Shown here piece after piece: positions 1,971 through 6,755 of a stretch of 6,755 nt of DNA. This DNA comes from a virus (Duplodnaviria; Heunggongvirae; Uroviricota; Caudoviricetes): IMG/VR virus record IMGVR_UViG_2711768074_000016, positions 1 to 6,755 of that record. One strand, written 5' to 3'. How positions within the stretch are numbered: the stretch's first letter is position 1; every line of letters begins with the position of its first letter. Position numbers and translations under genes: made by a program. The notes beneath the pieces were generated by a model. It saw only the letters and a list, made by a program, of their open reading frames with translations. It was not told the DNA's origin and searched no databases.

Positions 1971-1999
1971 AAAAAAACCCGCAAAAAGCGGGCTCTTTC
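1971..1999 (-). terminator. Intrinsic terminator immediately downstream of the Q-like gene (tR'-like)
   Basis: On the minus strand: stem cccgc/gcggg with a 5-nt loop followed by seven T residues (gcccgctttttgcgggttttttt). About 80-100 nt downstream of the Q-like stop, matching the short pR'-tR' arrangement of lambdoid phages. Confidence 0.55.
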
Positions 2000-2071
2000 A
2001 AATGTCCATGTCTGCTATTCGCCTCGCGGTACAGCTTTGCGAAGCTTACCGGAATTGAAGCAGTTTTTACG

Positions 2072-2638
2072 TCAAAAAGCAATAACTTTTTTCTCTATAC
2101 CAAAAGCCATAACCATTGGTTTGTACAAAATAAATTCTGCCACCTTTAGCCAATGCTCAATGCGTCTTTCACAGGTTCTTAAACTCCATTCCGGATGTGC
2201 ATCATTCAGCAGTTCAGCCATTTTGCGCTTAGTCATCCCCCGCCCCACATAACGCTGACTCAGAACATTGAGCAGCCCGGGATAACCTGCCAGTACTTCA
2301 CCAATAACCCTGTCGATTATTAACGCCTCTGAATCGGTACAATGTGCCAGCCAGCTTTTTTGATTGCCGTTGATCATATCCCGCAAAAAAGCCTCAAGTT
2401 CAGGTTTGTCCAGACCCGCTTTTTTCATCCTCCGGAGCGCCTCGTTAATTGCCGTTTTTGTCAGCTTTTTAGAGGTCAGTAATTGGTTGAACATATTTCC
2501 CGTCTTACCGTCGCCAATATACGACCAACGCCCCCACATACGCAGTTTCCCCTGGATCCAGACACTTTCCAGCGTTTTCAGGCGTAAATGCTCACCGCTT
2601 TTGCCTGTAATTTCCGGGTATATCATATTTATGCTCAC
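2072..2638 (-). CDS. Putative late-gene antiterminator Q-like protein, 188 aa
   Basis: Position immediately after rusA and before a strong terminator, as in lambdoid nin-Q regions. The LRMWGRW motif resembles the RWGAW motif I recall in Q-like proteins such as DLP12 QuuD. The track start at 2638 is GTG and overlaps the rusA stop; an in-frame ATG at 2626 is an alternative start. Confidence 0.5.
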   Translation of the reverse strand: MSINMIYPEITGKSGEHLRLKTLESVWIQGKLRMWGRWSYIGDGKTGNMFNQLLTSKKLTKTAINEALRRMKKAGLDKPELEAFLRDMINGNQKSWLAHCTDSEALIIDRVIGEVLAGYPGLLNVLSQRYVGRGMTKRKMAELLNDAHPEWSLRTCERRIEHWLKVAEFILYKPMVMAFGIEKKVIAF

Positions 2639-4770: not shown

Positions 4771-4800
4771 AAAATAAAAACAAAAACCCGCCGAAGCGGG
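4771..4800 (-). terminator. Intrinsic terminator of the hok mRNA
   Basis: On the minus strand: stem cccgc/gcggg with a 4-nt loop followed by tttttgtttttatttt. About 70 nt downstream of the hok stop. Confidence 0.65.
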
Positions 4801-4870
4801 TTAAGTGCGGGTGCGTTGAGGATGCCTGACACATCAGCGGTGGCGAGGGATTTCTCCCCCGCCTGGTCTC

Positions 4871-5026
4871 TTACTCCTCAGGTTCGTAAGCTGTGAAGAC
4901 AGCGACCTCCGTCTGGCCGGTTCGGATTCGTACCTCGCAGAGGTCTTTCCTCGTTACCAGTGCCGTCACTATGACGGTTAAACAGATGACGATCAGGGCG
5001 ATTAACATCGCCTTTTGCTGCTTCAT
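4871..5026 (-). CDS. hokD: Hok-family type I toxin (HokD/RelF-like), 51 aa
   Basis: The translation MKQQKAMLIALIVICLTVIVTALVTRKDLCEVRIRTGQTEVAVFTAYEPEE matches HokD as I remember it. RBS AAGGAG upstream of ATG at 5026. Single transmembrane helix followed by a periplasmic tail. Confidence 0.85.
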   Translation of the reverse strand: MKQQKAMLIALIVICLTVIVTALVTRKDLCEVRIRTGQTEVAVFTAYEPEE

Positions 5027-5083
5027 AGCCTGCTTCTCCTTGCCTTTCGGCGCGTAAGAGGCTAACCTACGTTTGTGAAGCAT
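4871..5083 (-). CDS. mok-like reading frame: in-frame N-terminal extension of hok (70 aa) that gates hok translation
   Basis: ATG at 5083 with GAGG 8 nt upstream. The 19-aa extension MLHKRRLASYAPKGKEKQA parallels the MokC extension in K-12, which is likewise in frame with its hok. Confidence 0.45.
   Translation of the reverse strand: MLHKRRLASYAPKGKEKQAMKQQKAMLIALIVICLTVIVTALVTRKDLCEVRIRTGQTEVAVFTAYEPEE
5040..5068 (+). promoter_or_regulatory. Candidate promoter for a Sok-like antisense RNA (-35 TTGCCT, 17-bp spacer, -10 TAACCT)
   Basis: Hexamers read on the plus strand inside the mok/hok overlap, positioned so that a transcript would run antisense across the mok start codon and SD. Sequence pattern only. 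Confidence 0.25.
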
Positions 5084-5152
5084 AGATTGGGCCTCAGATT
5101 AATGTTAAGCGTCTTGCAGGACGCGTAATGTTAACTGGGGCTTTTCTCTGTC
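5075..5152 (+). ncRNA. Putative Sok-like antisense RNA complementary to the mok translation initiation region
   Basis: Inferred from the candidate promoter plus a downstream hairpin (gcgtc...gacgc at 5111-5126, enclosed by gcctcag/ctggggc) followed by ttttctc. Ends are not defined. Confidence 0.2.
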
Positions 5153-5237
5153 TGCCTTACGGTGGCATGCCCGAGGCAGACAGCCTCAAGCACCCGCAGC
5201 AATTCTACTTAACTCCCGTCACCTCGCCAATATAAAA

Positions 5238-5397: not shown

Positions 5398-6429
5398 CTA
5401 CCAATCAATAAAATCAGTGATGTTATCCAACCTAATTACAGTAACTTCCCGTCTCAACTGGTTTTTCCAATATATCTCACGAGCGTTTTGTTCACCAGCA
5501 CCGCTCCACTCAATTACTCTTAAAGGCTTAGAGGTTAGGTAAGGTCGAATAAGCAGGTTAAGGTGAATATCGAGACCAGAGTAACCAAACAATATTATTT
5601 CTTCTGATTCAAATAATGCAAACTGCAAATAATCCCAGTACGTAGAAAGAACATTAGATGCTGCTATAACTGACGGTTTTCTTTTTATATGAGTTAACAC
5701 TATATGCTCACTAGGTTCATCTATGTCAAGAGTAAGTTGTGAGCGTGAAAGTTTTAAAACATTTTCATGCTGATTAATAAATAGTGGTGAACCATGCAAG
5801 TGCAAATAATAACCAAACCTACGATTGTATTTCCGTTCGAGCGCTGCAGAGGAAAATCCGTGGCTTAGCATCCCATCAACTAAAACCCCATCATACCCGT
5901 TGAATATATCATTATCTATGAATGAATTGTATAATAATTTGTCATAGTTTAATGTCGCGATATGTGAGTGTGTGTTCTTTACAAACTCCACAAGCGCATT
6001 TTCGAATCTTTGTGGCAAACCTTTATCGTAATTATGCAACCTGGTTGCAACTTTGTGAATATAAGTGGCGGTAATTTTGGGGAAGTTTAGTCCATCTTCA
6101 GTAAGCCAATGCACGTTCCCCTCTCCAATTTGAGCAAGAGCTTTACAATATGTGACAGCCTGGTGAAGGGTATCCAACTCATGTTCTCCTTCTGGTGGAC
6201 CTTGCCGCTGAAGACAACGCTCGATAAGTTGCTTGTGGATATCTTTTAAAAAATTGGGGCGATGCCAAATTTCTTCCAACGCTCTGTCTAAGGAGAAGTG
6301 AGCAGGATCTAAAGCCATACCGAGACCGTTGCCGAATATTATTAATTTTCTTGCCATATAGGGGGACTCATATTGGAATAACGCTGGATAGCGTCGCGCG
6401 ATACGCTTAAGTTTAGGATTAATAGACAT
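5398..6429 (-). CDS. Stand-alone SIR2-like domain protein (SIR2_2/ThsA-like fold), candidate NAD+-depleting antiphage defence effector, 343 aa
   Basis: The translation carries the four SIR2_2-type motifs in the correct order and spacing: a Rossmann glycine-rich loop LIIFGNGLG (res 29-37), TLNYDKLL (res ~158-166, putative catalytic Asn161), LHLHGS (putative catalytic His212, codon at 5794-5796) and ILFGYSGLD (res ~278-287). Compare ThsA: FAGAGLS, TTNYDRL, MHGD, LFVGFSFTD. The gene is AT-rich with many rare ATA and AGA/AGG codons. The start is uncertain: 6429 has a weak RBS and the in-frame ATG at 6357 is an alternative. Confidence 0.6.
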   Translation of the reverse strand: MSINPKLKRIARRYPALFQYESPYMARKLIIFGNGLGMALDPAHFSLDRALEEIWHRPNFLKDIHKQLIERCLQRQGPPEGEHELDTLHQAVTYCKALAQIGEGNVHWLTEDGLNFPKITATYIHKVATRLHNYDKGLPQRFENALVEFVKNTHSHIATLNYDKLLYNSFIDNDIFNGYDGVLVDGMLSHGFSSAALERKYNRRFGYYLHLHGSPLFINQHENVLKLSRSQLTLDIDEPSEHIVLTHIKRKPSVIAASNVLSTYWDYLQFALFESEEIILFGYSGLDIHLNLLIRPYLTSKPLRVIEWSGAGEQNAREIYWKNQLRREVTVIRLDNITDFIDW

Positions 6430-6651
6430 TCCGTTTGATTACTCTTGTTATTACAAACTTGCATGCAAAGAAGCCCAAGCTGTTAGGTAAACAGAGACCG
6501 CAGTGGCAAGATAATCTAGATATAGCCTATAAAATCCAACAACAAATAGCGGCCTGTTTTCTATGACTTTTCTTTTCCCTAAATATCGCTTATCTAATAA
6601 AATGCAATAATGTATTGCACAGTATTTAATGTGTATTAATATAGATAAGTA

Positions 6652-6755
6652 GGTGATGCTGCCAACTTACTGATTTAGTGTATGATGGTGTTTTTGAGGT
6701 GCTCCAGTGGCTTCTGTTTCTATCAGCTGTCCCTCCTGTTCAGCTACTGACGGGG
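6652..6755 (+). mobile_element. IS1 insertion sequence, left end (partial; continues beyond the window)
   Basis: The canonical IS1 left inverted repeat GGTGATGCTGCCAACTTACTGAT starts at 6652 and is followed by sequence identical to the IS1 5' region as I recall it. Confidence 0.9.
6707..6755 (+). CDS. insA: IS1 InsA, N-terminal fragment (3'-truncated by the window edge)
   Basis: GTG at 6707 followed by codons for ASVSISCPSCSATDG, the InsA N-terminus. Confidence 0.8.
   Translation, partial: MASVSISCPSCSATDG

Follow-up and report, generated by a model that had tools for sequence, protein, structure and literature searches.

Right arm of the prophage and its Q-like gene

The window, by which we mean the whole analysed stretch of 6,755 nt, carries the right arm of a prophage on its minus strand. 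A SIR2-like gene (6429-5398), hok/sok (5195-4871), a DUF968 gene (4056-3007), rusA (2994-2635), a Q-like gene (2638 or 2626 to 2072), an ORF (1970-1650 in its long reading), a DNA methyltransferase gene (1499-441) and a tRNA gene (400-325) follow each other in that order. There is a gap of 101 nt between the Q-like gene and the ORF, and the DNA downstream of the Q-like gene is most likely the switch for the late genes of a lambdoid prophage, with a proposed promoter, a putative sigma-dependent pause signal and a terminator. The 1.1 kb around this element show 100% identity to E. coli SLK172 and 97.6% to O157:H7 EDL933, and of 5426 complete E. coli genomes, 2757 gave a match to a 1.1-kb query holding the Q-like gene and the ORF behind it.

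The prophage homology ends exactly at the 3' end of the tRNA (position 324), with the end of an island lying beyond. As the homology stops at this point, an integrative island has seemingly inserted into the prophage's own tRNA gene. The insertion seems to separate Q and the late promoter pR' from the late genes in the window, and the control of this copy over the lysis genes may be lost, the operon being cut after the tRNA. Positions 1-323 are the end of a CP4-like island and include a DUF4942 gene; in UMNF18 the YeeU/CbtA toxin-antitoxin genes and the Cah autotransporter are found farther along the island. The tRNA at 325-400 was called Met (anticodon CAT) by ARAGORN and the identical gene tRNA-Ile by PGAP, a conflict which is the usual ambiguity of the lysidine-modified Ile2 tRNA of Stx-type phages.

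Towards the other end, the hok/sok locus (4781-5195) scored 116 bits for sok in Rfam and E 3e-23 for Hok in Pfam, and a weak isrK-like match of 24.9 bits was seen at 4862-4781, over the terminator downstream of hok. The SIR2-like protein of 343 aa (region 5398-6755) gave weak matches to the Pfam SIR2_2, PADLOC SIR2 and PDC-S21 models and is a possible candidate for an anti-phage defence gene. The last ~100 bases of the window (~6650-6755) are presumably the end of an IS1.

The Q-like antiterminator gene runs from 2626 to 2072 and encodes 184 aa from the ATG at 2626, which is the start chosen by PGAP; with the GTG at 2638 as an alternative start the product (2638-2072) has 188 aa. The ORF ends with TGA at 2074-2072. 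The first-pass annotation had named the gene Q-like from its letters, and the name is borne out by matches to Pfam DUF1133 (E 3.7e-105), to PF06530 Phage_antitermQ (33.1 bits, above the cut-off of 26) and to PHROG 753, 'anti-termination protein Q-like' (E 5.8e-81); NCBIfam offered no matching model. Further, a profile of five divergent family members matched the Q21 structures 6JNX and 6P18 in two stretches (E 1e-7), and hhalign aligned the DUF1133 family with Q21 over nearly the full length (96.4% probability, E 1.1e-9), DUF1133 having an insertion of ~30 residues. Scored against the two Pfam models, Q21 itself reached 87 bits for PF06530 and 22 bits for DUF1133.

In phages and prophages the DUF1133 gene directly precedes tRNAs and lysis genes. 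We found the Q-like gene ahead of lysis genes in two prophages, those of EDL933 and SLK172, and in two phage genomes, vB_EcoS-666R9 and vB_EcoS-683R6. Downstream of the same Q in EDL933 and SLK172 lie tRNAs, a nanS-like esterase, holin, lysozyme and Rz, and in EDL933 also terminase. The profile matches, along with the position before tRNAs and lysis genes, identify the Q-like protein as a distant homologue of Q21 and hence, as judged from the alignments, a member of that family. PGAP names it only 'DUF1133 family protein' in both SLK172 and EDL933, DUF1133 is still 'protein of unknown function' in Pfam, and a literature search on DUF1133 found nothing.

Proposed promoter, putative pause element and terminator after the Q-like gene

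We gathered the post-Q regions from ~170 related loci and anchored the main type on TAnGCT, which reads TAAGCT in the window. This resulted in 54 distinct sequences, 43 of which belong to the spacing class of the window. It should be noted that all 54 were selected by TAnGCT, so only the fixed distance to an upstream TTG is independent evidence for this motif. As a reference we used the phage 21 record OL657228, in which the annotated order is Q stop, pR' -35 TTGACA, QBEu ATTGAGCA, QBEd AATGAGCA, -10, transcription start site (TSS), the sigma-dependent pause element (SDPE) TAAGCTG, terminator, tRNAs and lysis genes. The SDPE of phage 21 starts one base after the annotated TSS, and the terminator ends ~50 nt from the TSS.

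By homology, we propose TTGCTT (2082-2077), within the last Q codons, as the -35 of pR' in the window, and by conservation an extended -10 at 2062-2054 consisting of TG (2062-2061), a C and TTCAAT (2059-2054). The geometry in the window is TTGCTT-17 nt-TTCAAT-5 nt-TAAGCT, with the TG one base before TTCAAT. All 54 distinct family sequences have a TTG 34 or 35 nt upstream of TAnGCT, whereas the distance from the end of the Q stop codon to TAnGCT ranges among them from 7 to 42 nt; as the TTG keeps its distance despite the shifting stop, it is conserved at the DNA level and free of coding constraint. Within the 43 sequences of the window's class there is a G at -13 in every one and a T at -14 in 38, and in TTnAAT the T, A and T are present in 43/43 and the fifth-position A in 42/43. 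Near-consensus promoters occupy the homologous place in the Edwardsiella phage EPP-1 (TTGACA-16-TAGTAT-7-TACGCT) and in a Providencia phage (TTGACT-16-TATAGT-7-TATGCT), and other, more distant viral contigs read TTGACT-16-TATGAT-7-TAAGCT there. By analogy with phage 21 transcription is predicted to start at ~2049-2046, a position which is only approximate since the gap between -10 and TAAGCT is 5 nt in the window as compared to 7 nt in the strongest relatives. Published start data were also sought for the locus, and Tree et al. 2014 gives no start site.

The window hexamers TTGCTT and TTCAAT are weak; they agree with consensus at 7 of 12 positions and the -10 has no A at position 2. The first-pass annotation had left the promoter to be predicted, and our consensus scan of the window called neither a promoter nor the terminator at 1998-1971; the -35 and -10 were placed through the 54 relatives and phage 21. 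Weak hexamers and a scan that calls no promoter are what one would see if the hairpin merely ended the early-right (Q) transcript and the interval held no promoter. Against this, the TTG / -10 / TAnGCT geometry is conserved wherever Q stops, the whole block is also found ~900 nt away from Q in two loci (L075 and L009), past an inserted module, and the phage 21 counterpart is a mapped promoter. We therefore hold it extremely unlikely that the hairpin is an end-of-operon terminator only.

A possible -35 TTGACG had been pointed out earlier at the end of Q. The hexamer is indeed there, at 2075-2070 and overlapping the Q stop codon, but it is not the -35: divergent relatives read TTTTACG, AATGAGC or AGTGAGC at this place, which corresponds to the QBEu position of phage 21. 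It was also reported that no convincing -10 lies at a workable spacing from TTGACG, and we agree, as the nearest -10-like hexamer is TAAGCT, 21 nt away. A promoter composed of TTGACG as -35 and TAAGCT as -10 was rejected on account of this spacing and of conservation. The promoter proposed from the family alignment is hence TTGCTT with the TG-extended TTCAAT, and not TTGACG.

Since it falls at the QBEu position, TTGACG is more plausibly part of a likely Q-binding region. In the alignment, the promoter spacer at 2076-2061 on the minus strand, which includes the Q stop codon and TTGACG, corresponds in position to the two subsites for Q in phage 21, with TTTGACGT at 2076-2069 and AAAAACTG at 2068-2061. 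In a gapless comparison anchored on the pause element, QBEu ATTGAGCA of phage 21 lies at -28..-21 and QBEd at -20..-13. The relatives read AATGAGCA, AATGAGCC, AGTGAGCC or TTTGAGCA at -28..-21; the window has TTTGACGT, which departs from the TGAGC core of many relatives. By analogy of position, the spacer 2076-2061 is a candidate site for the binding of Q.

TAAGCT itself (2048-2043, minus strand) would lie at ~+1/+2 of the RNA. The same six bases make up the hexamer of the SDPE annotated in phage 21 (TAAGCTG), and none of the 43 sequences in the window's class departs from the T, A, G, C and T of TAnGCT. On this homology, we infer that TAAGCT acts as a -10-like sigma-dependent pause element. 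One might instead read TAAGCT as the -10 of the promoter, in which case transcription would start near 2036, the RNA would be ~65 nt and TTCAAT would have no promoter role. The A at position 2 and the T at position 6, which are the key positions of a -10, are kept in 54/54 sequences, and many Klebsiella relatives have a TG one base upstream. Yet no subgroup shows a -35-like hexamer 16-18 nt upstream, the near-consensus promoters of the relatives end 7 nt upstream of TAnGCT, and in phage 21 the same hexamer is the annotated pause element with the TSS one base before it. We consider a -10 role for TAAGCT improbable and keep to the pause element.

A second AAGCT (2037-2033, minus strand) lies 11 nt downstream of the first and is kept in most of the family, as AAGCTG or GAGCT. 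Together with the pause element it forms the inverted repeat AGCTT-CGCA-AAGCT at 2046-2033. The repeat is maintained in one relative (L189) by a compensated two-sided change, AGCTC-GCG-GAGCT. A by-eye search from the pause element to the terminator found only this short AGCTT/AAGCT repeat recurring, and no consistent second hairpin. The repeat could be a second -10-like element, a hairpin in the nascent RNA or a protein site, and the conserved second AAGCT 11 nt after the first is a modest new point of this study.

The first-pass annotation placed a strong terminator within ~100 nt of the Q-like gene, abutting the next ATG, and this we could confirm. The intrinsic terminator tR' at 1998-1971 on the minus strand has a core stem 1992-1988/1982-1978, a loop at 1987-1983 and a T-tract at 1977-1971 that runs up to the ATG at 1970. 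It reads GAAAGAGCCCGC-TTTTT-GCGGGTTTTTTT and folds with -18.2 kcal/mol, as compared to -4.7 +/- 1.8 for 200 shuffles (z -7.6). We infer that the consensus scan overlooked it because the upstream A-run may pair with the T-tract and leave no free T tail. A strong hairpin with a T-run follows TAnGCT by 52-102 nt (median 67) in 62 of 72 distinct relatives, and most of the remaining 10 have a hairpin with a broken T-run. The stems of these terminators are diverse, with CCCGCC/GGCGGG types, CCTCGC/GCGGGG, CTGCC/GGCGG and ACCTGC/GCAGGT. Two mosaic joints were seen in this part of the window; at ~2018 the similarity to other Q-bearing phages ends, and at 1982, inside the terminator, the similarity to phiP27 and Stx2 phages begins. 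The promoter/pause part travels with Q, while the terminator and the downstream genes are exchangeable.

From the positions of promoter and terminator, a terminated transcript of ~77 nt is predicted at 2049-1971 on the minus strand. The consensus scan did call another intrinsic terminator at 1663-1646 on the same strand, composed of GCCTTCCTCAGTGAAGGC and a T-run; it overlaps the 3' end of the ORF after tR' and lies upstream of the methyltransferase gene. Its presence fits an operon that needs processive antitermination.

The T-tract of tR' was also said to leave no room for a Shine-Dalgarno sequence in front of a 106-aa ORF. The T-tract does abut the ATG at 1970, which comes immediately after its last T, but this ATG is probably no start codon, and the missing Shine-Dalgarno sequence is then no real problem. 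For a true start at 1970, without Shine-Dalgarno sequence and either leaderless or coupled to the terminator, speaks an open frame spanning 1970-1650, which many close relatives share with the window. However, other lineages have ATA, GTG, GCG or CGA in place of the ATG, and in at least 7 distinct relatives the 123-nt, 41-codon extension is interrupted by 1-nt deletions (122 nt) or in-frame stops. By comparison, the ORF of 65 aa that begins with the ATG at 1847 (1847-1650, minus strand) is undisrupted in 26/26; it is complete in 24 of these distinct relatives, and in the other 2 the recovered sequence stops before the ORF does. This 65-aa ORF is also the only one annotated here by PGAP and in the phiP27 record. 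Translation from 1970 is hence very unlikely, and conservation and annotation both point to the 65-aa ORF as the first gene after tR'. The disruptions in the relatives suggest that 1970-1848 is a probable untranslated 5' leader of the read-through transcript. The 65-aa product is winged-helix-like, with a match to Pfam TrmB at E 0.0015, which is below the cut-off.

Comparison with other late control systems

The phage 21 cassette is the closest known system. It has a homologous Q protein, its promoter, like the one proposed here, starts only a few bases from the Q stop, and an identical TAAGCT hexamer stands at its start site. The putative Q-binding positions fall between -35 and -10 and are equally far from the pause element in both, and when anchored on the SDPE hexamer the order of the elements is the same and their spacing nearly so. 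Both have a short terminated RNA, predicted in the window, and tRNA genes, with late genes following in phage 21 and in the EDL933 and SLK172 copies. The window differs in that its Q is only distantly related, with the ~30-aa insertion, and is filed as DUF1133 by both Pfam and PGAP. Its spacer shows no clear direct repeat of the ATTGAGCA/AATGAGCA kind, its proposed -35 is TTGCTT instead of TTGACA and its proposed -10 the TG-extended TTCAAT instead of that of phage 21. The predicted RNA is ~77 nt as compared to ~50 nt, and the family of the window adds the conserved second AAGCT.

Late control in lambda relies on a constitutive promoter downstream of Q, a pause element resembling a -10 at +1 to +6, and a terminator that polymerase modified by Q reads through. 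The control logic of lambda pR', 6S RNA and tR' is the same as proposed here, but Q-lambda is from another protein family and the lambda RNA is 194 nt. The StxS RNA is the terminated pR' transcript of Stx1 and Stx2a phages, and a trans-acting role has been shown for it (PMC7547250). Like the RNA predicted here it is a short product of an E. coli prophage whose transcription ends at a tR' located behind Q, and the phages carrying it share the layout of Q, tRNAs, moron site and lysis genes. It differs in being 258 nt, processed to 74 nt (PMC7547250), and in having no sequence similarity to the element of the window.

In Gifsy-1 the IsrK and IsrJ loci likewise give short terminated RNAs between the Q gene and the lysis genes, and the short IsrK transcript has a regulatory role (PMC4825925). 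A DUF1133 Q is followed by a true IsrK in the loci L075, L009 and L006, where the IsrK copies score 67-76 bits on Rfam isrK. The window has no IsrK module; its stretch at 2045-1972 reached 19.8 bits (E 0.64) on Rfam isrK (RF01394), where the threshold is 50, and we rejected the block as an IsrK homologue on this ground. We initially assumed that AntQ of Gifsy-1 is a DUF1133 protein, an assumption which was dropped as the IsrJ loci indicate a Q of the PF06323 type. Using the published IsrJ probe we found the Gifsy-type IsrJ block, with a layout of TTGCAA-17-TATATT ... terminator in the loci L102-L177 (Salmonella-type prophages). It is different in sequence and occurs only with Q933-type (PF06323) genes, not with DUF1133, hence the block of the window was rejected as an IsrJ homologue too. 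When the DUF1133 block of L009 was scanned against Rfam with permissive settings, no isrJ match appeared. We regard lambda pR'/6S/tR', StxS and IsrK/IsrJ as functional analogues.

The type of element follows the type of Q. The IsrJ block directly adjoins a Q933-type Q in 37 loci; in 25 others the two are ~900-1,100 nt apart, with an IsrK/antirepressor insert between them. In L075 and L009 a module of ~900 nt with IsrK and antirepressor correspondingly separates the DUF1133 Q from a TTG...TTCAAT...TACGCT block, the order being DUF1133 Q, true IsrK, C4-like RNA, antirepressor, promoter/pause block and terminator; in L075 the same 65-aa ORF follows the displaced block and terminator. Each Q family thus keeps its own downstream block despite the inserts, as would be expected of a cognate loading site. 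By its position after Q933-type genes, IsrJ looks like their terminated pR' transcript, and the predicted ~77-nt RNA would be an analogue of lambda 6S RNA, StxS and IsrJ.

The IsrK locus (~3075-3280 in L006 and L009, 2590-2790 in L075) matches the Rfam families for C4 antisense RNA and the c4-a1b1 target. According to these matches it resembles the immI (c4/icd/ant) module of phage P1, and a P1 immI-like module appears to be inserted between Q and its late promoter in L006, L009 and L075.

The analogues raise the question of whether the element mainly makes a trans-acting small RNA, with antitermination being secondary, a reading that is compatible with a Q-dependent cassette. Short pR'-tR' transcripts are regulatory in Stx phages (StxS; PMC7547250) and in Gifsy-1 (IsrK; PMC4825925), the predicted RNA has a hairpin and then a U-run at its 3' end, and the 25 nt after TAAGCT are conserved. 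On the other hand the Rfam isrK score stays far below threshold, and the stretch from the conserved 5' part to the terminator is a recombination joint that varies freely. We find a main role in trans doubtful, though conceivable.

Proposed control of the late genes

Taken together, it is highly probable from the sequence comparison that the element is the Q-utilisation cassette of the late operon of a lambdoid prophage, of the phage 21 type. Being built like the phage 21 cassette, it would be an ordinary member of a known control system. The first-pass view of the locus as a lambdoid pR'/tR'-type module is supported by this homology along with the conservation within the Q family.

The sequence elements, their conservation and geometry, the protein homology to Q21 and the gene context were established directly, and on these we base a mechanism whose steps are taken, by homology, from the cassette definition for Q proteins. 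By analogy, the start site, the pausing, the binding of Q and the Q-dependent read-through would be as follows. RNA polymerase with sigma-70 would start at ~2049-2046 from the weak promoter overlapping the end of the Q gene, and sigma region 2 would re-bind at TAAGCT (2048-2043) and make the polymerase pause near the promoter. Without Q, transcription would stop at the hairpin and T-tract at 1998-1971 and yield the ~77-nt RNA. Q made from the early-right operon would bind the spacer at 2076-2061 and load onto the paused polymerase. The polymerase modified in this way would pass the terminators at 1998-1971 and 1663-1646 and read into the 65-aa ORF, the DNA methyltransferase and the tRNA, and in intact relatives further into the lysis and structural genes.

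What is new here, modestly, is that alignment and context allow DUF1133 to be viewed as a clade of Q21-like antiterminators whose loading site is conserved. Further, we speculate, as a tentative possibility only, that DUF1133 forms a distinct clade of this kind with a loading site of its own, made up of TTG, a 17-nt spacer, TGnTTnAAT, 5 nt, TAnGCT and the second AAGCT one helical turn later, and that the ~77-nt RNA acts in trans. As the control principle is textbook knowledge, the gain lies in annotation and experimental handles, and not in concept.

A very common prophage gene, which automatic annotation leaves as 'DUF1133 family protein', is hereby given a function and a precise regulatory site at the strength stated above, and a likely over-long ORF call is corrected. 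This operon is also where Shiga-toxin phages and related ones carry inserted toxin genes or other cargo, and the positions given for promoter, pause element and terminator enable reporter and mutational tests of how late and cargo genes are expressed.
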